A stretch of DNA of 32,000 nt from Erysipelotrichaceae bacterium (GTDB lineage: Bacteria > Bacillota_I > Bacilli_A > Erysipelotrichales > Erysipelotrichaceae). A program made the translations under genes and the position numbers. The notes under the pieces are model-generated. The model saw only the letters and a program-made list of their open reading frames with translations, was not told where the DNA came from and ran no database searches. Each line of letters opens with the position of its first letter. Within the stretch, counting starts at the first letter, position 1. The stretch is from the NCBI GenBank assembly GCA_030604855.1, contig JAUVVC010000001.1, positions 30,001 to 62,000 on the forward strand, in the 5' to 3' direction. Below are positions 3,066 through 31,149 of the stretch, piece after piece.

Positions 3066-3100
3066 AAAACACGGAAGCTAAACAACAGCTTCCGTGTTTT
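3066..3100. terminator. Bidirectional rho-independent terminator between convergent genes
   Basis: AAAAA-CACGGAAGCT-aaacaac-AGCTTCCGTG-TTTT: a perfect 10-bp stem flanked by an A-run and a T-run. The stop of the minus-strand symporter (3078-3080) sits inside it. Confidence 0.85.
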
Positions 3101-4391
3101 GATTGTAGATCTCTTCGTTGAGATGACCAGTTTTCTTGGCCACGATGAGGGTTGCGGTTGCGGCACCGGTCACATTGGTGGCAGTACGTCCCATATCCAC
3201 TAGACTTGAGATCGGTGTCATCAAGACGATGACATCCAAAGGGAGCCCCATGCTTGCGAAAACAGCAGTTGCCGTGATGGTGGCAGTACCTGGAACGCCT
3301 ACGGTTCCAATCGAAACCAAGACGGTTGTCCCAATCAACATCGCATATTGTGCAAGTGTGAAGGGGATACCCAAGGCATTGATGGCAAAGACAGCCAACA
3401 TGGTTGGCCAGATACCAGCACATCCAGGCATGCCCATGTTTGCGCCTAAGGTTGCGACGAAGGATGCCACATCTTCATGGATACCGAGGTTTTCTTTAAG
3501 TTGACGAATAGTTACGGGAAGTGTCCCGATCGATGATTGTGAGGTGAAGGCTACGATTTGAGCGGGGAAGATGCCTTTGAAGAAACGAATTGGATTTACT
3601 TTAGCAACGAGTGCGATGAGGGTTCCATGAACCAAGAAGGTCTGAGCAATCAACATCAAATAGGCAACGAGTACAGGTAGAGTCAAGACCCAAAGATCGA
3701 CATTCGCACTGTGACGACTGGTCGCATAAGCAATTAGGGATAAAACGGCATAAGGCGTCAGTTTGATGATGGAGCGAACAATCCCAAAGAGAATTGTATT
3801 TAAAGCATCAATGCCATCTTTGAAAGTTGAGAGAGAAGGAATTCGTTCACGTAACTTAACGAAGGTGAAGCCGATCATTAATGCAAAAATCAATAGGGGA
3901 ATGATTTCTTGATTTGCTGCATGTGCGAAAATATTACGTGGGAAAAGATTAAGGATTGTTTCTAGTAATGTTGGGACCGTTGCGGTGCTGGCTTCACTGC
4001 TTTCAAGAATCGTCACACCAACGCCTAAATTGAAGAGCTTGGATACGACAACGCCTAAGATGGCAGCAACTAGCGTGTTCAAACTCAACCAGAAGATCGA
4101 ACCCAAGCCGATGGATTTCAGTTTCGCAGTACTCTCCAATTGAATGATGGAAGCGATGACACTGACGAAAATCAGAGGGACCACGATTGCGGAGATCAAG
4201 CGTGTGTAAATCTGCCCAAAGATACGAACCAAGTCCACATGCCCTTGAAAGACTAGACCGATAAGAATACCGAAAATCATTGCGATAAGTGTACGGATGC
4301 CAAAGTTGACTTTGCGTTTAGCTAAATAGAATAATAAACCAAATAAAATGAGTGTCGTGCCTAAAGCACTGATTGCGTTTATGGTGAACAT
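3078..4391 (-). CDS. Dicarboxylate/amino acid:cation symporter (DAACS) family, L-cystine carrier TcyP/YhcL-like
   Basis: 437-aa polytopic protein with the DAACS motifs AFTSQSS and VDMGRTATNV. It has GMPGCAGIWPTMLAV where glutamate carriers have NMDGTALY, which as I recall is the TcyP-type pattern. The N-terminal LFYLAKRKVNF also resembles TcyP. SD AAAGGA precedes the ATG. Confidence 0.8.
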   Translation of the reverse strand: MFTINAISALGTTLILFGLLFYLAKRKVNFGIRTLIAMIFGILIGLVFQGHVDLVRIFGQIYTRLISAIVVPLIFVSVIASIIQLESTAKLKSIGLGSIFWLSLNTLVAAILGVVVSKLFNLGVGVTILESSEASTATVPTLLETILNLFPRNIFAHAANQEIIPLLIFALMIGFTFVKLRERIPSLSTFKDGIDALNTILFGIVRSIIKLTPYAVLSLIAYATSRHSANVDLWVLTLPVLVAYLMLIAQTFLVHGTLIALVAKVNPIRFFKGIFPAQIVAFTSQSSIGTLPVTIRQLKENLGIHEDVASFVATLGANMGMPGCAGIWPTMLAVFAINALGIPFTLAQYAMLIGTTVLVSIGTVGVPGTATITATAVFASMGLPLDVIVLMTPISSLVDMGRTATNVTGAATATLIVAKKTGHLNEEIYNQNTEAVV

Positions 4392-4403
4392 AAATTTCCT
4401 TTC

Positions 4404-4430
4404 ATAAAAAAACAGGTCGAAAACCTGTTG
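4404..4430 (-). terminator. Intrinsic terminator inside the 5' leader of the symporter gene (attenuator)
   Basis: The minus strand reads CAACAGGU-UUUCG-ACCUGUU-UUUUUAUG: a 7-bp stem followed by a U-run, ending only about 12 nt before the SD of the symporter. Confidence 0.7.
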
Positions 4431-4462
4431 AAAATGCTAAATGGTTCTCAGTTTAGCGAAAT

Positions 4463-4510
4463 TCAACATCGATTGTGACAACATACAATTCTATTTAATC
4501 GGAATGACAT
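4463..4510 (-). CDS. Candidate 15-aa leader peptide MSFRLNRIVCCHNRC (3 Cys codons)
   Basis: AGGAG (4521-4525, minus strand), a 10-nt spacer, then ATG 4510. The ORF ends at TGA 4463-4465. It lies between the promoter and the leader terminator and is embedded in mutually exclusive pairings. It is too short for the ORF track. Confidence 0.4.
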   Translation of the reverse strand: MSFRLNRIVCCHNRC

Positions 4511-4558
4511 TGTTGAATTGCTCCTAACATAGTAAACATACTAGTGAACTATGTATAG

Positions 4559-4587
4559 ATTATGCAACAATATTCGAATCCTGTCAA
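4559..4587 (-). promoter_or_regulatory. Sigma-A type promoter for the symporter leader
   Basis: The minus strand reads TTGACA (4587-4582), a 17-nt spacer, then CATAAT (4564-4559). Confidence 0.55.
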
Positions 4588-4655: not shown

Positions 4656-4685
4656 TTGACATTATCAAAATCAGAAGTCTATAAT
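4656..4685 (+). promoter_or_regulatory. Sigma-A type promoter for the T-box operon
   Basis: TTGACA (4656-4661), an 18-nt spacer, then TATAAT (4680-4685), about 15 nt upstream of Stem I. Confidence 0.65.
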
Positions 4686-4700
4686 TGAATTAAATTGAAA

Positions 4701-4942
4701 CGCTTTGAAGAGAAGAGTAGTCTGTGTGGCGTTGGTAGAGAACCCTGAAGTGGTGAAAAGGGGAATCAAACACAGGTGAACATGGTCTTGGAGCGGCATA
4801 CCGAAGGGAAACCTAAGGCTATGACGGACGATTCCGTTATAAATCTAGAGTATGTCTTGTACTCGAAGAGATTCGATCAGCGATGAGCGAATGAACAAAG
4901 GTGGTATCACGGTTTGACCCTCGTCCTTGGATGGGGGTTTTT
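4701..4942 (+). promoter_or_regulatory. T-box riboswitch leader (specifier most likely AUG, Met)
   Basis: Stem I carries GAAGAGUAG (GA/S-turn), an AGAGA bulge and a GGUGAAA distal loop. An F-box CCGUUA is present. The T-box sequence AAAGGUGGUAUCACGG lies at 4897-4912. The terminator ACCCUCGUC-CUUG-GAUGGGGGU + UUUU lies at 4917-4942. Confidence 0.9.
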
Positions 4943-4965
4943 ACGTTTAAAAGGAGAAAAGGGAA

Positions 4966-5544
4966 ATGCAGAAGAAAAATCTAGCACAGCTTATTCTAGG
5001 GGATTGGAATACGAAGACAGTGGTTGGAGTCGCGATTGGTGCAGCGTTGTTTGGGGTCTTGATGGTCTATGGTGGGGTCAAAGTCTTCACGAATACCAAT
5101 CTGACCACAGCGATGTTGATTCCGGTCATTGTTGGGGCATTGTTTGGACCCGTACCGGCCTTGGTGGCGTGTTTCTTTGGAAATGTCATCGCCGATTTGA
5201 TCGGGGGTTGGGGTTTCTGGTTTGACTGGTCGATTGGCAATGGTGTCTTGGGCTTCTTCGTTGGCTTATTGCCGTTGTATGGCGCAGACATCAATAAAGG
5301 GGTCTTTACGGTTAAGCATGCCGTCATCTTTGCCTTGGTTGCCATCTTGGGCAATGCCTTGGCTTTTGGTGTCGTGACACCTTTGTTCACACTCTTGTTC
5401 TTTGGTGGAGAATTGAACATCACTTTCCTACAGTCCTTGACCGGTGGTGCTTCCAATGTCTTGGTTCTCACCGTATTGGGCATTCCTTTGTTGTTTGCTT
5501 TGGCGAAACGCAACGCAAGTTCACAAAATTTGGTCAAAGAATAA
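4966..5544 (+). CDS. ECF transporter substrate-specific (S) component, substrate unknown
   Basis: 192-aa, roughly 6-TM hydrophobic protein directly followed by ECF A-A' and T genes. The SD AAAGGAGAAAAGGGAA precedes the ATG. Confidence 0.8.
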   Translation: MQKKNLAQLILGDWNTKTVVGVAIGAALFGVLMVYGGVKVFTNTNLTTAMLIPVIVGALFGPVPALVACFFGNVIADLIGGWGFWFDWSIGNGVLGFFVGLLPLYGADINKGVFTVKHAVIFALVAILGNALAFGVVTPLFTLLFFGGELNITFLQSLTGGASNVLVLTVLGIPLLFALAKRNASSQNLVKE

Positions 5545-5545
5545 C

Positions 5546-7237
5546 ATGCATAAAGAACCCTTGATCGTCTTCGATCATTTCAGTTTCCGCTATGCTTCAC
5601 AACAGGTGGAAACCCTTAAAAACATTCATCTCACCATTTATAAAGGTGAGAAGGTTTTAATCATCGGTCAAAGCGGCAGTGGGAAGAGTACTTTGGTGCA
5701 TTGCATCAATGGTTTGATTCCCAATTCGTTCAAGGGCGAAATACGTGGATCGTGTACCGTTGCTGGCATGGATATCAGCCATGCCAGCATCTTTTCTTTG
5801 AGTAAACAAGTGGGTACGGTGCTTCAAGACTCCGATGCCCAGTTTGTCGCCTTGTGTGTAGGAGAGGATGTGGCCTTTGCCCTTGAAAATCAAGCGATTG
5901 AAAGAAAAGAAATGATCCCCTTGGTTAAGAAAGCGACGGATAAAGTCGGGATGTCTGATTTTTTGATGCAGGTGCCCTATACGCTTTCAGGTGGCCAAAA
6001 ACAGAAAGTTTCCTTGGCCGGTGTCTTGCACGAAAATGTGAGTATCCTGCTTTTTGATGAACCCTTGGCCAGCTTAGATCCCTTTTCGGGGATGCAAGCG
6101 ATTGAACTCATCGATGCGATCCATCAAGAAGATCGCACGGTCATCATTGTCGAGCATCGTTTGGAAGATGTCATGCATCGTGAGATCGATCGTGTCATTG
6201 TCATGCATGAGGGAGAGATCGTCTATGATGGGGATTTGAATGCTTTGTTAAAAGCAAATATTCTCATTCACTATGGACTGAGGGAACCCTTGTATCTACA
6301 GGCTTTGAATTATGCAAAGATCCCTTTCAGCACCTTTGAAGATGTGACTGACATAAAAAGAATGAATTTTAGTGCAGTTCAAGGTGAATTGAAATCATTT
6401 GTGCCAAAACAGCTCCATAAGCGAATTGATCGTTCTGAAGTACTTTTAACGGTTAAAGACATCCATTTTGCTTATGATGTGAAGCCGGTTCTCAAGGACA
6501 TCCATTTCACGGTTCATCGGGGTGAGCGACTGGCCTTTGTCGGGAAGAATGGGGCAGGTAAGAGTACGATGGCCAAACTATTGTGTGCTTTCGTCCGTCC
6601 AGAAAAGGGTTCGATTGAGTTGAGTGGAACGGATATCAAAGTCTTGACCATCAAAGAAGTGGGCCAAAGAATTGGCTACGTCATGCAGAACCCGAATCAT
6701 ATGATCGTCAAACATTTGATCAAAGATGAGGTACGTTTCGCTCTGGAAAATCAAAGTCTTACCAATGAACAGATCGATGATCGTGTCGAAGATGCCCTTA
6801 AGATCTGTGGCCTGCATTCCATGCGTAATTGGCCGGTATCCGCTGTCAGTTATGGTCAGCGCAAACGTATCACGGTTGCGGCAATCCTTGCTTTAAACCC
6901 AGATATCTTGATCTTAGATGAACCCACTGCCGGTCAGGATTATGCTCATTACTCTGAAATCATGGATTTCTTGGATCAGTTGAACAATGACCATGGCATC
7001 ACCTTCATCTTCATCACTCACGACATGCATCTGGCAATTGAATATACCGATCGAGCCTTGGTGTTTGCGGATGGGGAGTTGATCGCGGATGATGAGATTC
7101 AAGCCATATTGTCGAATCCAGACATCATTGAAAAAGCCAATCTCAAGCAAACATCCTTATATTACCTCGCACAAGCCTGTGGTATAGCGGTTGAACCCTT
7201 TATCCGTTCATTCATTGAACAACGGAGTCAAGCATGA
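5546..7237 (+). CDS. ECF transporter fused ATPase (EcfA-EcfA' duplicated ABC domains)
   Basis: Two ABC cassettes: Walker A GQSGSGKST and GKNGAGKST, signatures LSGGQKQKV and VSYGQRKRI, Walker B LLFDEP and LILDEP. ATG 5546 (MHKEPLIVFDHF) is preferred over the 5444 extension, which overlaps the S gene. Confidence 0.9.
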   Translation: MHKEPLIVFDHFSFRYASQQVETLKNIHLTIYKGEKVLIIGQSGSGKSTLVHCINGLIPNSFKGEIRGSCTVAGMDISHASIFSLSKQVGTVLQDSDAQFVALCVGEDVAFALENQAIERKEMIPLVKKATDKVGMSDFLMQVPYTLSGGQKQKVSLAGVLHENVSILLFDEPLASLDPFSGMQAIELIDAIHQEDRTVIIVEHRLEDVMHREIDRVIVMHEGEIVYDGDLNALLKANILIHYGLREPLYLQALNYAKIPFSTFEDVTDIKRMNFSAVQGELKSFVPKQLHKRIDRSEVLLTVKDIHFAYDVKPVLKDIHFTVHRGERLAFVGKNGAGKSTMAKLLCAFVRPEKGSIELSGTDIKVLTIKEVGQRIGYVMQNPNHMIVKHLIKDEVRFALENQSLTNEQIDDRVEDALKICGLHSMRNWPVSAVSYGQRKRITVAAILALNPDILILDEPTAGQDYAHYSEIMDFLDQLNNDHGITFIFITHDMHLAIEYTDRALVFADGELIADDEIQAILSNPDIIEKANLKQTSLYYLAQACGIAVEPFIRSFIEQRSQA

Positions 7238-8079
7238 AGCAGTTCGTCATCAATGTCACCCCGGGTCCAACTTTTCTTCACCACTTGAGTGGCAAGACCA
7301 AGGTCATGCTTTTCGGAACGTTCATCTTTTATACCTTGATGTCCTTTGATGTGCGTTTGCTTCTACCATTGTTCATTCTGTGTTTGGTCGCACTCATCAG
7401 TTTGAAACCCAATTGGAAAGTGGTCATCGCGCTCTTCACATTCATCTTCTTCATGAATCTGATCAATCTTGTTCTTTTTTGGTTGGTGGATCCGGATGTG
7501 GGTCAGTATTACACGACGGACACACGTACCATTCTGCTAAGCTTAGGAAATTTCTTCTTGAGTCGTGAAACCTTTTGGTATCTGTTGATTCGACAACTCA
7601 AATTAATGACCAGCTTCATGGTTTCCTTGACGTTTATCTTAGCCATCACACCATCTGAATTTGCGGCAGGTTTGTATGGCCTCGGTTTACCGTATAAAGT
7701 CTGTACGGTGGTTTCTTTGGCTTTCCGTTACATTCCAGATATCGCCAATGATTATGAAAACATCAAGATATCACTTCAAGCGCGTGGTTTGGAGATGGAT
7801 AAGCGTAAACTTAATCTCTTCAAGCGTTTGAAAGACAATCTTTTCATTTTATTGCCTTTGATCATCAGTTCATTTGATCGCATCGGGAATATTGCGAATG
7901 CCTTGGATCTTAGAGCCTATGGTTTATTGAAAAAGAGAACGTATTATGCTGAACATGAACCCACCAAGGCGGATCATGTCTTTCGTTTCATCGCGATTGC
8001 GGTTTTAGTGTTCAGTTTTGCTTGGATTGGATCACGGATGATCTGGCCTCCGGTCACACAAATGTGGACCCCCTTTTAA
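7234..8079 (+). CDS. ecfT: ECF transporter transmembrane (T) component, CbiQ/EcfT family
   Basis: ATGA overlap with the ATPase stop. It is a polytopic protein with the coupling-helix region SLQARGLE and ANALDLRAY (A-R-G / A-x-x-x-R motifs). Confidence 0.85.
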   Translation: MKQFVINVTPGPTFLHHLSGKTKVMLFGTFIFYTLMSFDVRLLLPLFILCLVALISLKPNWKVVIALFTFIFFMNLINLVLFWLVDPDVGQYYTTDTRTILLSLGNFFLSRETFWYLLIRQLKLMTSFMVSLTFILAITPSEFAAGLYGLGLPYKVCTVVSLAFRYIPDIANDYENIKISLQARGLEMDKRKLNLFKRLKDNLFILLPLIISSFDRIGNIANALDLRAYGLLKKRTYYAEHEPTKADHVFRFIAIAVLVFSFAWIGSRMIWPPVTQMWTPF

Positions 8080-8087
8080 GGAGCAAT

Positions 8088-9416
8088 ATGCTAAAGCTTG
8101 ATGAACTTCTTGAATTGTTAAGCATCAAAAGTGTGTATGATGAAGCGACGGTGACTGACGTTGAACCCTATGGGAAAGGCGTTGCCCAAGCCCTCGCATT
8201 CATGCGAGAACTGGCTTTGAAAAACAAGCTTGAAGTCAAGGAATACGAGGGACACGCGATCGCAATCTGCTTGGGGGACCAAGAAGAGCGTATTGATGTG
8301 GTCTCCCATCTGGATGTCGTATCCGCGGAGGATTGGGATGAAGATCCCTTCACACCACGGATCGTCAATGGTGAGATCATCGCACGTGGAACTCAGGACA
8401 TGAAAAGTGCAGCGTATCTGACGCTCAAGGCCTTGATTGAAATCAAAAAGAAGAAGATTCCACTACAACGTCAGCTTCGTATCGTGTTGGGTACGGATGA
8501 AGAGCGCACCATGGAAGACATGGTTCATTATGTCAAACAAGCTGGTCAACCGAAGTTTGCCTTTACCCCAGACGGGGCTTTCCCTCTTTCAATTGGAGAG
8601 AAAGGGGCACTCATGTGGCACATCAAAACTCAGATTGAAAGCCCGGTTCTTGAAATGAGGGGCGGAACACAATGCAATGTGATCGCACCCCATTGCACCT
8701 TCACTTTACCGCATGCCTTCAAAGGTTTGATTCACCAAACAACGGAAGCTCTTGACTTTGAAGTGAAGTGCGAAGAAGACCAGGAGCTTCTCCATTATAC
8801 CTTCACAGGCATTGCAGGTCATGCCTCACGTCCAGAAAGTGGACACAATGCGATTGTGGATGCCCTTCAAGTCTTAGCGCTCTGTTTCCCTAAAACAGCC
8901 TTTAAGAAGCTTTATGAGACCTTCGAAAGTCCTTATGCGAGAGGGACAACACTTGCTTATAATATTGAACCGATGGGACCTTTGACGCTCAATCTGGGTA
9001 TCTGTTCACTCCGAAATGGAGTTTTTGAGGCGGACGTGGATTGTCGCTACCCGTATGGGGTCACATCGGATGTTTTGACACAACACTTGACACAAGCATT
9101 ACCGGGTTTTGAGGTCAGCTTACCCTACGATGCCATTCCCATCTTGAATGACATCCAATCACCCTTTATTCAAACTTGTTTGAAGCATTATCGCGCAAAC
9201 TTCATTGATGATCGAGAACCCTTCATATCCGGAGGTGTGACGTATGCCAAGATCATTCAGCCTTGCATCGCCTTTGGACCGCTCTTACCGGGTCGGATCA
9301 GCTTGGCCCATCAGAAGAACGAATCGATTGCCATTGAAGATCTTGAACTTTTGTATCCCTTTTATCGGGATATCCTAATAAAACTTGCCAATTGTGAGGA
9401 GAACCAACATGCCTAA
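8088..9416 (+). CDS. M20 family metallo-hydrolase, PepV/Sapep-like dipeptidase
   Basis: ATG 8088 follows AAGGAG. The motifs SHLDVV, ARGTQDMKSA and LGTDEE match the metal-ligand and catalytic blocks of M20A dipeptidases. Confidence 0.8.
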   Translation: MLKLDELLELLSIKSVYDEATVTDVEPYGKGVAQALAFMRELALKNKLEVKEYEGHAIAICLGDQEERIDVVSHLDVVSAEDWDEDPFTPRIVNGEIIARGTQDMKSAAYLTLKALIEIKKKKIPLQRQLRIVLGTDEERTMEDMVHYVKQAGQPKFAFTPDGAFPLSIGEKGALMWHIKTQIESPVLEMRGGTQCNVIAPHCTFTLPHAFKGLIHQTTEALDFEVKCEEDQELLHYTFTGIAGHASRPESGHNAIVDALQVLALCFPKTAFKKLYETFESPYARGTTLAYNIEPMGPLTLNLGICSLRNGVFEADVDCRYPYGVTSDVLTQHLTQALPGFEVSLPYDAIPILNDIQSPFIQTCLKHYRANFIDDREPFISGGVTYAKIIQPCIAFGPLLPGRISLAHQKNESIAIEDLELLYPFYRDILIKLANCEENQHA

Positions 9417-10248
9417 AACCATCGTTTTTCAATCGGATTTCACCTACAAAGAAGGAGCTGTGGCAGCTATGTATGGGGTGGTCAAACAAGTCGATCCCAA
9501 CTTGGAGATCATCGATCTGACCCATGAGATTCCCAAGTTCGATATTTGGTCTGCTTCATTCAGACTGCACCAGGTTGTGCCTTTCTGGCCCAAAGGAACG
9601 GTCTTTGTCAGTGTCGTCGACCCAGGCGTGGGGACTTTCCGCAAAGCCTGTGTCGCAAAAACCAAGAGTGGTCAATGGGTTGTAACACCTGATAATAAGA
9701 CCTTGACGCATATTGCCAAATTCATTGGACTTGAAGAAGTTCGTGAGATTCCAGCCCATCTTCGTTTCGCATCGCCGTATAAGACGGCCGTCTTTCATGG
9801 TCGTGATGTCTTTGGTTATGTCGGTGCACTGCTTGCGAGTGGTCAAAAGAAGTTCGAAGAAATCGGTGAAGTTTACACGGATTATCAAACTTATGACTTG
9901 GAAGAACCACGAATTGAAGGGGATAAGCTTGTTGGCATCGTAGAGATCTTGGACCCTAATTTTGGAAATGCCTGGACCAATATTCCCATCACCTGGGCGA
10001 AGCAAGTTGGGATTGAGTTCAATGATCTGGTAGAAATCGATATCTATGAGAAAGAACGTTTAGCTTTACAGTTAATCGTCCCTTATAAAGCAACATTTGG
10101 GGGTGTGCATGTGAATGAAGCGGTGATGTATGCGAATGAATTGGAGTGTTTGGCACTTGCCATCAATCAGAATTCATTCATCAACACCTATCACATCCAT
10201 CAAGGTCCAGACTGGTGCATCTGCATCAAGAAGGCAAGTTATGTCTAA
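9409..10248 (+). CDS. S-adenosyl-L-methionine hydroxide adenosyltransferase (DUF62, fluorinase/chlorinase superfamily), paralog 1
   Basis: ATG 9409 follows GAGGAG and overlaps the M20 gene by 8 nt. The protein has FQSDFTYKEGAVAAM, VSVVDPGVGTFR and FHGRD, so the Asp71/Arg78/His130 triad is present. Confidence 0.85.
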   Translation: MPKTIVFQSDFTYKEGAVAAMYGVVKQVDPNLEIIDLTHEIPKFDIWSASFRLHQVVPFWPKGTVFVSVVDPGVGTFRKACVAKTKSGQWVVTPDNKTLTHIAKFIGLEEVREIPAHLRFASPYKTAVFHGRDVFGYVGALLASGQKKFEEIGEVYTDYQTYDLEEPRIEGDKLVGIVEILDPNFGNAWTNIPITWAKQVGIEFNDLVEIDIYEKERLALQLIVPYKATFGGVHVNEAVMYANELECLALAINQNSFINTYHIHQGPDWCICIKKASYV

Positions 10249-11086
10249 GATCTTAGTCCTGCAATCAGACTTTGGAATCGTGGATGGGGCTGTGAGTGCG
10301 ATGATTGGGGTTGCCTTAAGTGTCGATGATTCCTTGAAGATTTTTGACTTGAGTCACTCGATTTCACCTTTCAATATTCATGAAGCATCCTATCGTTTAC
10401 TCCAATCCTTGCAATACTGGCCAGAAGGTTCGGTGTTTGTGAGTGTCGTAGACCCAGGGGTAGGATCGAAACGCAATTCAGTTGTGGTTCGTACACGTGA
10501 GAATCATATTGTAGTGACCCCAAACAATGGGACACTCTCGCATTTGAAGAAGTTTATCGGTATTGAAGAAGTCTTTGAAGTGGATGTGGCGAAACATCGT
10601 CGCAAAGGTGCCAGCAATCAATCGTATACCTTTGATGGTCGTGATTTATATGCCTATATCGGTGCACGTTTGGCTTGTGGGCAACTATCCTTAAATGACG
10701 TAGGACCAAAACTGAGTGAAGATCAAATCATATCCTTTGAACTTCCCGAATCGCTTGTCGAAAATGATTCTGTCAAAGGAAGTGTGGAGATTTATGATGA
10801 GCGTTTCGGTAGTTTATGGACGAGCATCTTGGTAGAGGATTTCAATCAATTAGACCCAAAGTATGGTGATCGTTTCAAAGTCGAAATCAAACATGAAGGC
10901 ATCTCATACCTTGATGAGTCTGTTCTATATGGCCGTGCTTTCAATGATGTGCATGTGCATGATTTGATTCTCTATGTGAATTCATTGAATCGCGTTGCTT
11001 TGGCCTTGAATCAAGATTCTTTGGTCAAGAAGTATGGAATTGGTTTAGGACTGGATTGGACCATAAGCATCACACCCATTCGTTAA
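10241..11086 (+). CDS. SAM hydroxide adenosyltransferase family (DUF62), paralog 2 with altered triad
   Basis: ATG 10241 overlaps the stop of paralog 1 (ATGTCTAA). The protein has LQSDFGIVDGAVSAM and VSVVDPGVGSKR, but FDGRD replaces FHGRD, so the triad His is Asp132. Confidence 0.8.
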   Translation: MSKILVLQSDFGIVDGAVSAMIGVALSVDDSLKIFDLSHSISPFNIHEASYRLLQSLQYWPEGSVFVSVVDPGVGSKRNSVVVRTRENHIVVTPNNGTLSHLKKFIGIEEVFEVDVAKHRRKGASNQSYTFDGRDLYAYIGARLACGQLSLNDVGPKLSEDQIISFELPESLVENDSVKGSVEIYDERFGSLWTSILVEDFNQLDPKYGDRFKVEIKHEGISYLDESVLYGRAFNDVHVHDLILYVNSLNRVALALNQDSLVKKYGIGLGLDWTISITPIR

Positions 11087-11098
11087 GGATGGGTTTTT
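11074..11098 (+). terminator. Rho-independent terminator closing the T-box operon
   Basis: ACCCAT-tcgttaagg-ATGGGT followed by TTTTT. The hairpin spans the stop codon of paralog 2. Confidence 0.7.
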
Positions 11099-11167
11099 AA
11101 TGTGTCATGAACACTGAAATGAATGAATTGTGCTATGCTTTAAAAAACATGATGTGAAGGGAGCATA

Positions 11168-19157: not shown

Positions 19158-22100
19158 TCAAAGATTTAGTAAAGCGTTTAATAGAATCTCGCTTAAGTCC
19201 CTTAATACTTCTAATTCATTTTTAGAGTAGATATGTTTGTCTCGAACAGAGTCAAAACCTATAAATCCGTAACACGCATTGTTGAACATCATTGGCAAGG
19301 TAAGCAGACTTCTTACTTCTTGAGGTTCGAGGATTAATCTCACTGCTGACTCTGGGTCAAGAAGTTCCACATCAGGGATAAAGATTGTCTCTCCAACAAT
19401 GTGGGCATTTGCCCAATCAATAATGTTGCCTAATGGTATCTTTTGAAGTGCCTCGATTTGAGGTGTTATACCTGGTGAACACCATTCGTACGTATTTGAG
19501 CAGGTGGATTCTGTCCAGTCATATTTAAAAATGTATACTCTATCAGCCTTTACAACCGTTCCAATTAACTTAAGTGATTTGCTTATCAACTTTTGATAGT
19601 CAGATTTGTCTGATCTAATGAACTCGGATGCGATTTTTAATAGTATTTTATCTATCGTTTGATCATATATTCCTTGATCAACTATAGTTGCATCAATATA
19701 GTTAAGAGGGAACTTAGAACTTAGTTCCGAAACATGTTTGAAGTATTTTTGATCTTCTTCGAAAAAGTGATGTTTTAAGATATCAAATTCAAGAACAGAT
19801 AAGAATTCTAATACAGTAATGTTATTTGATTTATACTGATCATAATAATCGTAGATCGTTCTTACTAACTTCTTATGAATAGAATGGTGTTCTTTATAGT
19901 TGATATACTTAGTTGCTTCAAGTATCTCCACTTCGTCAGTGAAGTGTCTTCCGATTTTTATCAAAAGGTTATCTAGATGATAAGTAAGTTCAATTGAATC
20001 TATAGTTCGACCTTCAAGCAATTTTCTCAAGTCATATAGTTGTGCGATGAGTTCTTGGTGTTGATGATCGATGATTCTGTTGCCAGAATTCCATTCCACT
20101 TTCCAATAATTTTTCAATTCCTTATTCTCAAATATATGTTTACTCACTGGTAGGAAATTAATATCTTTCGCTGCATGATAATAAAGTTTAAAGTCTATTA
20201 GCCTTAATGGCTTCGAAAACAGATATCCTTGTATACTATCAGGTCTTAATTCGCTTAAGATTTTGAATTGATTTAATGTTTCAACACCTTCAATCGTAAC
20301 TTCTAGATTTAAACCGTGGAGAATAGAAATAATTGCTTCAACAATTTTCAGCGACTTCTGATCACTTTCAATTGAGCTTATTAAAGAACGATCGATCTTA
20401 ACAATGTCAAGAGGGAGCATTCTAAGATAAGCAAATGAAGAATATCCAGTTCCAAAGTCATCAAGTGCTAGACTTAATCCAAGCTCTCTTAAGCGATTGA
20501 ATACTTTAATCACCTCTATACTATCCTGTACTAAACTAGACTCTGTTACTTCTAGTTTTAGCCGCTTAGGATTGATTCCGCTTCTATTGAGTTCATATTT
20601 CAGGCAATTATATAGTTCGTCTTTTCGATCAGATATTGCTATGAATGAAAGATTTATACTTATAGACAAGAGTCCAAACTTTGATTCATCCCAACTTGCC
20701 AATTTTGAACACGTCTCGTGTATGACCCAGTCTGTAATGGGTATAATCAACTTTGTCTTTTCTGCTATTGGGATGAACTCAATCGGAGAAATAACTCCCA
20801 ATTTGGGGTGATTCCATCGTAACAACGCTTCAGCTTGATCAACCATCCCTGACTGAACATTGAAAATTGGTTGGTAATATAGCTCCAATTCTTGCTTATC
20901 AAGTGAGTTTCGTAAGTCTTTCTCAAGGAGTAATTCTCGTTCAATTTTAGATGCTAAAATGGAAGTGTATTGAACATATGTATTTTTTTGTTGTTTAGCT
21001 ACTCCTAAAGCCAATTTAGCATTTCGCAAAAGATCTTTATCATAAAGCGATTTATCTATGATTTCATATCCCATACTGGCATATAAGATTTGTATTCTCT
21101 CATTTATCAATATTTGTGTAGATATTGCTCTCCTTAACAAATCCATATATTCTACGACTTCAGTTTTAGTGTGTTTATTCAGTATAACTACAAATTCATC
21201 GCCTGCATAATAAAAAATAAAGCCATTTTGATCCGTCACTTCTTTTATTCTTTGTGCTACTTGTGCAAGGATAACATCTGCTGAATAGTAGCCAATTTCA
21301 TTGCTCAACTTTCCGAAATCATCTAGATCTATGTAGATAACAGTAAATTTGTTTAAAAGCTCAGTATTTGAGATTATGCTTTCTTCAAATAAGCGTAATG
21401 CTGTTTTGTTTTTAAGCCCAGTAACTGAATCATGCAAATATAGATACTCAATTCTTTCTTTATTCATTTTTTGATCATTAATGTTCTGAATTTGAATGAT
21501 AACAGACTGTTCATTTTCAAACTCTATTGAGCTTGCTGATATGGATGCCCAATATTTTTCATGTTTGGTGTTATAAAGCTCAAGCTCGAAATTATATAGT
21601 AGTCCATTTTTTCTAATTTCACCTATTAGATAATCTGCTTGTTCTGAGTTAACTAAATAATCATCAACATTTATTTTAATGAGGTCTCTTTTTGATAACT
21701 CGAAGTCATGAATTGCGCGAGCATTTGCATATTTGACCACCTTTTCTTTACTGCTCAAAATTAAGATAGGATAGGGTGTATTATCGAGCATTCTCCTATA
21801 TTCGGAATTTTTAGATGCTTCCTCAATGATTTTACGAGTAGTAATATCGTAATGGCTTCCAGCCATTTTTAATGGTTTCCCGTAAACGTCATACTCGATT
21901 ATTTTCCCGCGATCTAGAACCCAAACCCATTTTCCACTTTTATGTCGCATACGAGCTTCAGACTCGTAAATGTCCCTTTGGTTACGAAAATAGAGATCAA
22001 GATTCATTTCAGATTTTTTAAAATCCTCACTGTGAACTAGATTTTTCCATGTCTCAATTGTGGTAGGTTGCAACTCATCTAGTTTATACCCAACAATTCC

Positions 22101-22223
22101 AGCCCATCTTTCATCGAATTTGGTCTCACCTGTAAGTACATTCCATTCCCAATTTCCGACAGTAATGCTTTCGTTAGCTGTATCGAAGTAGTAGATATCA
22201 GTGTTTAAGTACTCGTTTTTCAT
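19158..22223 (-). CDS. Multidomain c-di-GMP protein: PAS-PAS-GGDEF(degenerate AGDEF)-EAL-hemerythrin-GAF
   Basis: Approximate domain spans are PAS aa 20-130 and 140-250, GGDEF 258-420, EAL 440-680, hemerythrin 705-835 and GAF 855-1021. The GGDEF A-site is YYAGDEF. The EAL domain has YQPI, EALLRW, LEVTES, DDFGTGYSS, KIDRS, EGVET and QGYLFSKP. The hemerythrin has IDHQH, HFTDE, HHSIH and HHFFEED. Confidence 0.9.
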   Translation of the reverse strand: MKNEYLNTDIYYFDTANESITVGNWEWNVLTGETKFDERWAGIVGYKLDELQPTTIETWKNLVHSEDFKKSEMNLDLYFRNQRDIYESEARMRHKSGKWVWVLDRGKIIEYDVYGKPLKMAGSHYDITTRKIIEEASKNSEYRRMLDNTPYPILILSSKEKVVKYANARAIHDFELSKRDLIKINVDDYLVNSEQADYLIGEIRKNGLLYNFELELYNTKHEKYWASISASSIEFENEQSVIIQIQNINDQKMNKERIEYLYLHDSVTGLKNKTALRLFEESIISNTELLNKFTVIYIDLDDFGKLSNEIGYYSADVILAQVAQRIKEVTDQNGFIFYYAGDEFVVILNKHTKTEVVEYMDLLRRAISTQILINERIQILYASMGYEIIDKSLYDKDLLRNAKLALGVAKQQKNTYVQYTSILASKIERELLLEKDLRNSLDKQELELYYQPIFNVQSGMVDQAEALLRWNHPKLGVISPIEFIPIAEKTKLIIPITDWVIHETCSKLASWDESKFGLLSISINLSFIAISDRKDELYNCLKYELNRSGINPKRLKLEVTESSLVQDSIEVIKVFNRLRELGLSLALDDFGTGYSSFAYLRMLPLDIVKIDRSLISSIESDQKSLKIVEAIISILHGLNLEVTIEGVETLNQFKILSELRPDSIQGYLFSKPLRLIDFKLYYHAAKDINFLPVSKHIFENKELKNYWKVEWNSGNRIIDHQHQELIAQLYDLRKLLEGRTIDSIELTYHLDNLLIKIGRHFTDEVEILEATKYINYKEHHSIHKKLVRTIYDYYDQYKSNNITVLEFLSVLEFDILKHHFFEEDQKYFKHVSELSSKFPLNYIDATIVDQGIYDQTIDKILLKIASEFIRSDKSDYQKLISKSLKLIGTVVKADRVYIFKYDWTESTCSNTYEWCSPGITPQIEALQKIPLGNIIDWANAHIVGETIFIPDVELLDPESAVRLILEPQEVRSLLTLPMMFNNACYGFIGFDSVRDKHIYSKNELEVLRDLSEILLNALLNL

Positions 22224-22270: not shown

Positions 22271-22360
22271 TAAAAAACACCTACTTGGGAACTGGCTGCC
22301 ATTTTAAAGGCCCTATAGTTTTGCGTCCAATGCTTTCGCACTGTTTGCCTTTTTCTTCAA
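22271..22360 (-). promoter_or_regulatory. c-di-GMP-I (GEMM-I) riboswitch candidate in the 5' leader of the GGDEF-EAL gene
   Basis: The minus-strand RNA reads GAAGAAAAAGGCAAACAGUGCGAAAGCAUUGGACGCAAAACUAUAGGGCCUUUAAAAUGGCAGCCAGUUCCCAAGUAGGUGUUUUUU. GGCAAAC, a 6-bp hairpin capped by GAAA, GGACGCAAA and AUGGCAGCCAGUU parallel the conserved blocks of Vc2 (GGCAAACCAUUCGAAAGAGUGGGACGCAAAGCC...) as I recall them. Confidence 0.75.
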
Positions 22361-29830: not shown

Positions 29831-31149
29831 AAATCTGTAAATTCGGTGGGTCATCACTCGCCAATGCTAAACAATTCAAAAAAATCATAACCATAGTGGA
29901 AAGCGATCCTAAACGACGAATCGTCGTTGTTTCAGCAGTGGGTAAATCACATCCGGATCAAAACAAAATTACGGATTTACTTTATCTTCTCCATGCGCAT
30001 CTTTTGTATGGGGTGGATTATCAAGCACTCCTGAATGAAATCATTGAGCGTTATCGCTCAATTCAATTGGATCTAGGTTTAAAGTTCGATGTACAAGCGT
30101 TTTTTGATCGTCTTAAAATGGATTTGAGCCCAAAAACAGAACGTGATGCCTTGGTTTCAATCGGTGAAAAACTCAGTGCCATCTTGTGTGCGGAGTACTT
30201 GAACTGGCCAATGATTGATGCGAAGGATGCCATCGTTCTTACAAGTGATGGCACAGTAGATCTTGAACGCTCGACACAGAAACTCAATACGCTTTTTCAA
30301 CAGTATCCTCATTTTGTATTGCCTGGTTTTTATGGGGCTTTACCCAATGGTCGTATCAAGCTTATGAAACGAGGGGGCTCGGACATTACCGGTTCGATTG
30401 TCGCGGCAGCGTTGCATGCGGAAATCTATGAGAACTGGACCGATGTCAGCGGCATCATGATGGCGGACCCTAGAATCGTCCCTGAAGCAAAACCGATTCC
30501 CCAACTGACTTATGGTGAGCTCCGTGAGTTGACATTCATGGGCGCTTCGATTTTGCATGAGGAATCCATTCAAGCGGTCAAACATCTCAACATTCCACTT
30601 AATATTCGCAATACAAATAAACCCGAAGAACTGGGTACTTTGATTCGCAATGATATCATCGATGATGATCAAGCTGAAGGTTTCATAACGGGCATCACTG
30701 GCCTCAAAGACTTTGCGGTCGTAACCGTGCATAAAGAACAAATCGCACGTCACCCACAGGTGTTACGTCAGATTCTAGAGAGCTTTGAACGACATGATTT
30801 GTTGATTGAACACATGACCAAAGGCATCGACAGTTTGAGTCTGACCGTTAAGGTAGAAGCTCTTAAAGAGCGACAATTCGATCTCTTTGCGGATCTCAAA
30901 CAGAAATGTTCGATTGATAAACTAACCTTTGAAGATGATTTGGCCTTAATTGCGGTTGTTGGTCGCAACATGAAAGAAAAGCCAGGCATATCTGGCCAAC
31001 TCTTCAGTGCACTGGGGGCAAAGAACATCAATATTCGTTTGATCGCTCAAGGTACCGATGAGATCAGCATCATCGTGGGTGTCGCCAATGCGGATTTTGA
31101 GTTGACGATTCAAACTCTATACGAACACTTCATTCGTAAGAATGGTTAA
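29827..31149 (+). CDS. Aspartate kinase (monofunctional)
   Basis: ATG 29827 overlaps the hom stop (ATGA). It has the MKICKFGGSSLAN kinase N-terminus, TDVSGIMMADPR, and two C-terminal ACT-like repeats (LIAVVGRNM, ISIIVGV). Confidence 0.9.
   Translation: MKICKFGGSSLANAKQFKKIITIVESDPKRRIVVVSAVGKSHPDQNKITDLLYLLHAHLLYGVDYQALLNEIIERYRSIQLDLGLKFDVQAFFDRLKMDLSPKTERDALVSIGEKLSAILCAEYLNWPMIDAKDAIVLTSDGTVDLERSTQKLNTLFQQYPHFVLPGFYGALPNGRIKLMKRGGSDITGSIVAAALHAEIYENWTDVSGIMMADPRIVPEAKPIPQLTYGELRELTFMGASILHEESIQAVKHLNIPLNIRNTNKPEELGTLIRNDIIDDDQAEGFITGITGLKDFAVVTVHKEQIARHPQVLRQILESFERHDLLIEHMTKGIDSLSLTVKVEALKERQFDLFADLKQKCSIDKLTFEDDLALIAVVGRNMKEKPGISGQLFSALGAKNINIRLIAQGTDEISIIVGVANADFELTIQTLYEHFIRKNG

Follow-up and report, generated by a model that had tools for sequence, protein, structure and literature searches.

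What does an importer take up whose genes share an operon with two DUF62 proteins (S-adenosylmethionine (SAM) hydroxide adenosyltransferases)? The question is raised by a 32,000-nucleotide stretch of the genome of an Erysipelotrichaceae bacterium (GenBank assembly GCA_030604855.1, contig JAUVVC010000001.1, forward-strand positions 30,001 to 62,000; hereafter the window). Here a T-box leader precedes six genes, which encode the S component, the fused EcfA-EcfA′ ATPase (EcfAA′) and the transmembrane component EcfT of an energy-coupling factor (ECF) importer, an M20 metallopeptidase and the two DUF62 paralogs. An earlier note on this DNA had regarded the set as a candidate methionine-scavenging system. 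According to the comparative analysis reported here, the operon would serve salvage under methionine or SAM starvation, the importer bringing in an adenosyl-sulfonium compound, most likely SAM, for hydrolysis to methionine and adenosine, an interpretation to which we give about an even chance of being correct.

Conservation of the linkage between transporter and DUF62 genes

The linkage was followed in 80 loci with 10-kb flanks, which were chosen by S-component homology from a one-genome-per-species collection and of which 70 were informative. It had been feared in the earlier note that the linkage might be absent from relatives; in a tBLASTn tally with the six window proteins, in which DUF62 was counted within 9 kb of the S gene, it is present at 67 of these 70 loci. 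One DUF62 copy is found at 19 loci, two copies at 30, and three, four and five copies at six loci each. With D for DUF62, the gene orders are S-AA′-T-M20-D-D, S-AA′-T-D-D, D-D-S-AA′-T, D-S-AA′-T-D-D, and S-AA′-T with four or five D. The hosts comprise Erysipelotrichaceae, Lachnospiraceae, Oscillospiraceae, Clostridiaceae, Christensenellaceae and Spirochaetes. Clustering of all open reading frames (ORFs) at the loci revealed no other recurring gene family, and the flanking genes differ by lineage. Because the DUF62 linkage persists while gene order and flanks vary and no other family recurs, transporter and DUF62 genes appear as the core of a unit with the pattern of a mobile functional cassette. 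That the cytoplasmic DUF62 enzymes are the conserved partners of the importer is strongly supported by these gene neighborhoods.

The cassette also occurs in the isolate genomes of Anaerocolumna sedimenticola, Thermoclostridium caenicola DSM 19027 and Parasphaerochaeta coccoides, named strains that are presumably cultivable. A further hint of adjacency, unverified at the sequence level, is given by a gene table in which consecutive S. aureus locus tags denote this S-component family and a SAM hydroxide adenosyltransferase (PMC13210130).

The M20 hydrolase behaves differently from the DUF62 genes. Its family assignment in the earlier note stands and is refined to a dipeptidase of the Sapep/PepV type, while its rank as a core partner is lost, the gene being present at 35 of the 70 informative loci; the M20 gene is a facultative accessory of the cassette. 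The protein scores 258.8 bits against TIGR01887 (cutoff 208) and lies below the PepV equivalog cutoff (275 versus 435 bits). Its best match in the PDB is S. aureus Sapep (3KHX, E 1.8e-40), followed by PepV (1LFW), and the motifs HLDVV, GTQD, DEE and HQKNE were aligned to Sapep 3KHX by inspection.

Control by methionine- and SAM-specific RNA elements

The T-box of the window was missed in a default Rfam scan, its score of 90.2 bits falling short of the gathering score of 93, and was recovered at 4696-4931 with permissive filters. This miss is a threshold artefact and not an absence, because the permissive scan gives a full-length match: the Infernal check against the RF00230 covariance model proposed in the earlier note covers model positions 1-219 of 219 with E 1.6e-20. 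The T-box begins about 10 nt downstream of the promoter, and the leader terminator (4916-4939, followed by a T-run) overlaps the 3′ end of the Rfam match.

The specifier loop has GAA-C-AUG-G on its 3′ side, immediately adjoining a UCUU/GAGA helix; the Rfam alignment and the minimum-free-energy fold of Stem I agree on this, and the fold keeps U-GAA-C-AUG-G in the loop. The AUG specifier occupies 4782-4784 and is followed by the purine G4785. The conserved T-box sequence AAAGGUGGUAUCACGG is present, and the UGGU bulge at 4902-4905 is complementary to an A73-CCA acceptor end. The discriminator of tRNA-Met is A73, that of tRNA-Trp G73. A UGG (Trp) specifier was also considered and is disfavoured because the UGGU bulge fits A73 and not G73. 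The window contains no tRNA genes. On these features of the sequence the leader is assigned to the Met-class T-boxes with an AUG specifier.

T-boxes on the same cassette were found in a second Erysipelotrichaceae group (L039, L044 and L059), whose S component is about 65% identical to that of the window, and in Caproicibacter (L055) as a third lineage. The L039 leader scores 93.0 bits, exactly the RF00230 gathering score. GAA-N-AUG-G is the same throughout the three lineages, in contrast to the underlying helix, which is GAGA/UCUU in the window, CAG/CUG in L039 and L059, and GGAG/CUCC in L055. The AUG specifier, on which the earlier note had made its proposal conditional, is therefore not only read from Stem I but also kept across three diverged T-box lineages. 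In L055 (2200-2470) another GC-rich leader stretch, about 275 nt long, separates the Met T-box with its terminator from the S gene; it matches no Rfam family at the gathering score and possibly constitutes a second, tandem regulatory element.

Riboregulators at the other loci were sought by Rfam scans of 16 loci, which were extended with sequence profiles. In L016 (Oscillospiraceae) a SAM-I riboswitch (77 bits) lies upstream of D-D-S-AA′-T, in the order promoter, SAM-I aptamer, intrinsic terminator, ribosome-binding site (RBS) and DUF62 start codon. Judged from this arrangement it is a classical OFF switch that would act first on the DUF62 genes. According to the profiles, a SAM-I aptamer with terminator is also found directly upstream of DUF62-DUF62-S-AA′-T in L019 and L024. 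Moreover, a SAM-I riboswitch of 85.8 bits precedes a distant Bacillus S-AA′-T operon (31% identical) without DUF62, the only one among the distant homologue loci lacking DUF62 that has such a riboswitch. Two unrelated methionine/SAM sensors thus control the transporter family in five lineages. Since the T-box and the unrelated SAM-I riboswitch both control the cassette, its predicted induction by methionine or SAM starvation, the inducer already named in the earlier note, appears robust.

Several other leader elements were noted. T-box-like matches to a regular expression in L031, L035 and L071 were rejected, as they have no Rfam match at E ≤0.001. Ten loci from Clostridiaceae and Thermoclostridium (L017, L018, L021, L022, L023, L025, L029, L042, L056 and L069) share a conserved promoter block CTATTGACTAATTGAAAGAAAAATGTAATAT upstream of S and, immediately in front of the RBS, a conserved hairpin ATAACCCCG...CGGGGTTAT, the part between them being variable. 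A novel riboswitch shared by the leaders without T-box or S-box was considered and not upheld, the middle being poorly conserved in this ten-locus cluster, the largest among such leaders. The arrangement probably reflects control of the cassette that is particular to this lineage, by an operator or at translation, and is possibly protein-mediated. In T. caenicola (L022) a lysine riboswitch (103.9 bits, 9355-9528, minus strand) is found immediately upstream of the cassette on the other strand; it controls the divergent neighbor and is unrelated to the cassette.

The same regulators bear on the possibility that importer and enzymes are co-regulated without sharing a substrate. The ECF system would then import methionine or a non-adenosyl precursor, as in the 2009 prediction of Mts for a methionine precursor, while the DUF62 enzymes would recycle the cell's own (R)-SAM, or surplus SAM, to methionine in starvation; we consider this rather unlikely. 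The physiological role of DUF62, which the earlier note still called unassigned, has meanwhile been proposed to be (R)-SAM clean-up, with archaeal knockout data (bioRxiv 10.1101/2025.08.29.672840), a proposal disputed by PMC12120602; intracellular (R)-SAM hydrolysis is the only role supported in vivo so far. It also agrees with mere co-regulation that TCDB lists the Met-regulated ECF family as 'methionine precursor' (PMC3654945), that M20 hydrolases would be suited to freeing methionine from peptides or acyl conjugates, and that SAM-I-regulated homologues without DUF62 exist, so that the transporter functions independently of DUF62. Yet the adjacency is observed across phyla even without a detectable shared regulator and with differing flanks and gene orders, and because it survives where regulators differ or go undetected, a shared substrate is favoured over co-regulation. 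Arrays of four or five paralogs, furthermore, are hard to justify for the clearing of a minor endogenous by-product. Finally, more SAM means more (R)-SAM to be cleared, yet it is SAM that switches expression off. Because the SAM-I riboswitch shuts DUF62 off at high SAM, the reverse of what clean-up needs, starvation salvage is favoured over (R)-SAM clean-up.

The DUF62 paralogs

Both DUF62 paralogs match PF01887 (E 1e-45 to 1e-47) and PF20257 (E about 1e-15). Among proteins of known structure, the best matches are 2ZBU (E 6e-44 for paralog 1), PH0463, MJ1651, the chlorinase SalL and fluorinases, the MJ1651 structure having been deposited as '(R)-SAM hydrolase'. The Asp-Arg-His triad (Asp68, Arg75 and His127 in PH0463 numbering, as counted by us on the structure alignment) is strictly conserved in DUF62 hydrolases and absent from halogenases (PMC10491745). 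Among the cassette DUF62 copies it is retained in 99 of 122. Paralog 1 shows D-R-H at these positions and paralog 2 D-R-D, FDGRD replacing FHGRD, an exchange seen only in the clade of paralog 2 itself and a few others. Besides window paralog 2, the second copies of L001, L004 and L039 and the first copies of L024, L053 and L072 carry Asp for His with Asp and Arg kept, and single cases of Tyr, Asn or Glu occur at the His position in other cassette copies.

The two window paralogs are 42% identical and fall into separate clades (n=32 for paralog 1 and n=33 for paralog 2) that recur as a pair, which suggests that these clades have been maintained since ancient times. There are two more catalytic clades, of 33 and 11 members. 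In addition, 11 degenerate copies without the triad are confined to the larger arrays, that is, loci with four or five DUF62 genes by tBLASTn. Such arrays follow S-AA′-T in L030, L032, L036, L041, L043, L048, L049, L063, L068, L074, L079 and L080, which are loci of rumen, gut and Sphaerochaeta types; in ORF-based clustering 11 of these 12 (all but L036) show one triad-less copy. The triad-less protein could have a binding function or form a non-catalytic subunit.

Arrays of two to five paralogs in distinct conserved clades fit a specialisation for different substrates or epimers. DUF62 family members of opposite sulfonium diastereoselectivity are documented (PMC12120602), and by analogy a division of labour between the paralogs, one acting on the (S,S) and the other on the (R,S) epimer, is an attractive idea. 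The DUF62 proteins begin right at the conserved SDF motif, with no visible signal sequence, and hence appear to be cytoplasmic; for this reason their substrate would have to be imported first.

The diversity of the clades also leaves room for the import of another, stabler adenosyl-sulfur metabolite, which evolved DUF62 clades would cleave to homocysteine, methanethiol or methionine. Candidates are S-adenosylhomocysteine (SAH), 5′-methylthioadenosine (MTA), S-ribosyl-methionine, decarboxylated SAM and a Se- or ethyl-analogue. SAH and MTA are of greater chemical stability than SAM, TCDB lists MtaTUV as a predicted ECF family for methylthioadenosine (PMC3654945), and another function has been argued for some DUF62 enzymes (PMC12120602). 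The cassette enzymes moreover form at least four clades which lie apart from the characterised SAM hydrolases and below the NCBIfam equivalog cutoffs, so that new specificities could be accommodated. However, every reaction known for the family depends on a sulfonium leaving group, the thioethers SAH and MTA being poor leaving groups, and the hydrolase triad is preserved just as it is in bona fide SAM hydrolases. Import of such a metabolite is accordingly given only a small probability.

The S component and its annotation

The S component matches PF07155 (E 1.4e-29) and passes the NCBIfam model NF010182 'ECF-type riboflavin transporter' with 132.3 bits (cutoff 99); its UniProt family name is UPF0397. 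The earlier note had asked whether the protein clusters with a known vitamin-specific family. Taken at face value the model score says that it does, while the label itself finds no support on inspection. Neither phmmer nor a 16-sequence profile finds a PDB chain at E ≤1, the riboflavin transporter RibU (3P5N and 5KBW) included. In the AlphaFold model (predicted local distance difference test score 74.7) the protein has an S-component fold, the top 21 Foldseek matches in the PDB being ECF S components only, and this fold is about equally near to FolT, RibU, BioY, ThiT and PanT (template modelling scores 0.5-0.65 at 11-17% identity). No flavin mononucleotide (FMN) riboswitch is present in the window or in the 23 loci scanned with Rfam, and no riboflavin or B6 gene is linked at any scanned locus. 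PF07155 is mixed, for it also includes the B6 transporters PdxU and PdxU2/HmpT (PMC9997740). Because of the missing RibU match, the equidistant fold, the missing FMN riboswitch and the mixed Pfam family, no weight was given to the 'riboflavin transporter' label, which for this protein and its homologues is probably misleading.

It might still be held that the annotation is right, in that the system transports riboflavin or another B vitamin and the neighbouring enzymes are unrelated passengers. The membership of the B6 transporters in PF07155 is in line with such a function. Against it stand, in addition to the sequence, fold and linkage results just given, the regulators that were found, which are Met- or SAM-specific, and the DUF62 linkage itself, whose presence at 67 of 70 loci no passenger effect can account for. 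We regard a vitamin transporter as highly improbable.

All 80 fetched loci belong to one tight S subfamily with at least 63% identity to the window protein. An exhaustive search among 1.84 billion cluster representatives returned 277 relatives at E ≤0.001, in which this subfamily collapses to one full-length representative (69% identity) and the next full-length relatives are at 40-43%. Going by this gap, the S component belongs to a discrete, DUF62-linked subfamily. The contigs of the nearest outgroup S components (40-43% identity) are too short for their gene context to be judged. In one of them, L085, the nearest outgroup S component (42% identity, 6028-8190) is solitary, without AA′T, and lies between genes for a NUDIX hydrolase and a B12-binding radical-SAM enzyme; in L088 another outgroup S component adjoins a phosphoribosyltransferase gene. 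Both are single short contigs. More distant members (26-36% identity) with S-AA′-T and no DUF62 nearby were found in Lactobacillus amylolyticus, Cetobacterium, Bacillus, Vibrio and Paenibacillus, the records coming from a plasmid collection and from Paenibacillus chromosomes.

The ECF module and a hairpin within ecfAA′

EcfAA′ scores above the cutoffs of both TIGR04520 (417 bits, cutoff 315) and TIGR04521 (368 bits, cutoff 330) on one protein of 563 residues. With the S fold, the EcfA and EcfA′ ATPase domains and EcfT all encoded in the same operon, the assignment of the three transporter genes to a dedicated (group I) ECF importer is strongly supported at the sequence level.

The strongest terminator-like site of the region lies not at the end of the operon but about 215 nt into ecfAA′ (5761-5789). 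This hairpin is kept in about 45 of 75 distinct orthologous sequences, in the arm variants GCUGGCA/UGCCAGC, GCCGGCA/UGCCGGC, GCUGGUG/CACCAGC and GCCGGAA/UUCCGGC, and some of the compensatory changes cost amino-acid substitutions. In the alignment 71% of cells are paired as compared with 29-46% in slid controls, and none of 500 shuffles matches the observed covariation. The hairpin may act as a partial terminator or as an mRNA stabiliser; by terminating or stabilising part of the transcripts it may provide S component in excess of the ECF module.

Proposed mechanism and points against it

In the proposed salvage pathway, uncharged tRNA-Met would let the leader read through its terminator, and all six genes are then predicted to be transcribed. 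The importer would take up an adenosyl-sulfonium compound, most probably SAM, and extracellular SAM would include the spontaneously formed, inactive (R)-sulfonium epimer. Inside the cell the DUF62 paralogs would displace L-methionine from C5′ with an activated water molecule, yielding methionine and adenosine, which would feed translation and purine salvage. The two paralogs may be kept for a complementary substrate or epimer preference, or for assembly into a hetero-oligomer. As an optional extra, the M20 dipeptidase probably opens a separate way to methionine, for example from Met-containing dipeptides.

The bolder version, namely that this is the first ECF-type SAM importer and the first case of SAM uptake in free-living bacteria, that the bacterial role of DUF62 is nutrient salvage rather than metabolite repair and that the two paralog clades are stereo-complementary hydrolases which jointly turn both sulfonium epimers of scavenged SAM into methionine and adenosine, is advanced tentatively, as a possibility that we hold to be on balance doubtful.

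A number of points weigh against SAM salvage. SAM as substrate of the S component is deduced indirectly, from gene linkage, regulation and the chemistry of the partner enzymes. SAM is labile and presumably scarce outside cells, and its uptake by bacteria is so far known only from carriers of the drug/metabolite transporter (DMT) type in obligate intracellular parasites (PMC12676344). The transporter family as a whole does not need DUF62, since its distant S-AA′-T members lack it. Most of the cassette loci scanned show no recognisable methionine or SAM riboregulator. Paralog 2 is without the triad His, and it is not obvious what a PepV-like dipeptidase would do with SAM itself. Paralog 1, moreover, scores 117.5 bits against 470 and 110.4 bits against 350 for the NCBIfam (R)-SAM hydrolase equivalogs NF053629 and NF058624, respectively, with similar values for paralog 2; by these profiles the window proteins are DUF62 family members and not demonstrable (R)-SAM hydrolase equivalogs.

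Organization of the locus and other features of the window

The promoter, T-box, six genes and terminator listed in the earlier note were each recovered at or within a few bases of the positions claimed for them (Table 1), and searches with Pfam and NCBIfam profiles upheld all six family assignments. The six ORFs each start with ATG and are in frame. They are closely packed: S and ecfAA′ are separated by 1 nt, ecfAA′ and ecfT overlap in ATGA, ecfT and the M20 gene are 8 nt apart, and overlaps of 8 nt join the M20 gene to paralog 1 and paralog 1 to paralog 2. The stem of the operon terminator spans 11074-11094 and is followed by the T-run.

Table 1. Features of the operon in window coordinates.
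Feature	Position	Strand	Remarks
Promoter, sigma-70 type, TTGACA-18 nt-TATAAT	4656..4685	+	12/12 consensus matches
T-box leader (RF00230), Met specifier	4696..4931	+	90.2 bits, E 1.6e-20, full-length model
T-box intrinsic terminator, OFF state of the leader	4916..4945	+	10-bp stem and T-run
ECF S component, 192 aa	4966..5544	+	UPF0397/PF07155 family, DUF62-linked subfamily
Fused EcfA-EcfA′ ATPase, 563 aa, DUF3744 linker	5546..7237	+	Two ABC_tran domains and PF12558
Terminator-like hairpin within ecfAA′	5761..5799	+	11-bp stem, then UCUUUUCUUU; conserved, compensatory arm changes
EcfT transmembrane component, 281 aa	7234..8079	+	PF02361 CbiQ, E 3.9e-21
M20 metallopeptidase, Sapep/PepV dipeptidase type, 442 aa	8088..9416	+	TIGR01887
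DUF62 / SAM hydroxide adenosyltransferase paralog 1, 279 aa	9409..10248	+	PF01887 and PF20257, full Asp-Arg-His triad
DUF62 paralog 2, 281 aa	10241..11086	+	PF01887 and PF20257, triad His replaced by Asp (FDGRD)
Operon terminator, 8-bp stem and T-run	11074..11099	+	Stop codon of paralog 2 inside the loop

Two further regulatory arrangements were observed in the window. Divergent from the operon lies a gene for an SDF-family symporter (3078-4391, minus strand), whose leader (4392-4587, minus strand) has its own promoter (4587-4559, 11/12 consensus) and, about 20 nt before the start codon, a terminator-like hairpin with T-run (4429-4411). This architecture suggests an attenuator or riboswitch; the leader matches no Rfam family, and its fold is no better than that of shuffled sequences. 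A c-di-GMP-I riboswitch (64.5 bits, 22284-22359, minus strand) is located directly upstream of a gene (19158-22223, minus strand) for a protein of 1021 residues with PAS, GGDEF, EAL, hemerythrin and GAF domains. By sequence, a cyclic di-GMP sensor would control an enzyme of cyclic di-GMP turnover in an apparent feedback loop.

Significance and comparison with known systems

DUF62 proteins are widespread in bacteria and archaea and many of their structures have been solved, while their purpose was still debated in 2025 (PMC12120602; bioRxiv 10.1101/2025.08.29.672840). Their pairing with an importer across phyla, under RNA switches for methionine or SAM, makes this question experimentally simple. 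If SAM is the cargo, the importer would be a new class of SAM transporter outside obligate parasites, anaerobes of gut, rumen and digesters would use SAM as a methionine source, and the system could be relevant to the uptake of SAM-analogue antibiotics. In addition, a misleading 'riboflavin transporter' annotation has probably been propagated over many genomes. In the literature searched, neither an ECF-type SAM importer nor a link between DUF62 and ECF was found, the DUF62 papers of 2008 and the comparative-genomics paper of 2009 lying outside that search.

Among regulated importers that dismantle their cargo, QrtT-QueK-QueL of C. difficile (PMC11477304) resembles the window system in combining a riboswitch-controlled ECF S component with cytoplasmic enzymes that take apart an imported nucleoside-type compound and so free the precursor required, the logic proposed for the window system as well. 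The S family, the enzymes and the ligand are different, and QrtT uses a shared ECF module whereas the window system has its own AA′T. The SAM transporters of Rickettsia and Chlamydia (DMT superfamily, PMC3104491) are the only established bacterial SAM importers and serve organisms short of SAM or methionine. In contrast to the window system they are unrelated secondary carriers of obligate intracellular parasites, in which SAM is used directly and no hydrolase is linked.

The characterised SAM hydrolases of the DUF62 family (PH0463, StDUF62 and the enzymes of S. acidocaldarius and H. volcanii) share with the window proteins the PF01887 and PF20257 domains and, in paralog 1 and most cassette copies, the triad. 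They are, however, encoded by stand-alone housekeeping genes and have been studied for metabolite repair, whereas those of the cassette are transporter-linked, predicted to be starvation-induced and multiplied into clades.

A close counterpart of the transporter is MtsTUV, the 'methionine precursor (Met-P)' ECF family (TCDB 3.A.1.29), which was predicted in 2009 by comparative genomics (cited in PMC3654945). By their described features, both have a dedicated operon of S, fused-ATPase and T genes and belong to the methionine regulon via an S-box or Met T-box. The near-obligatory pairing with one to five DUF62 genes is not described for MtsTUV in the literature searched, and distant SAM-I-regulated homologues lack DUF62. 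This comparison suggests that the cassette may represent a predicted Met-regulated ECF importer, now together with a conserved enzymatic partner that hints at its substrate.

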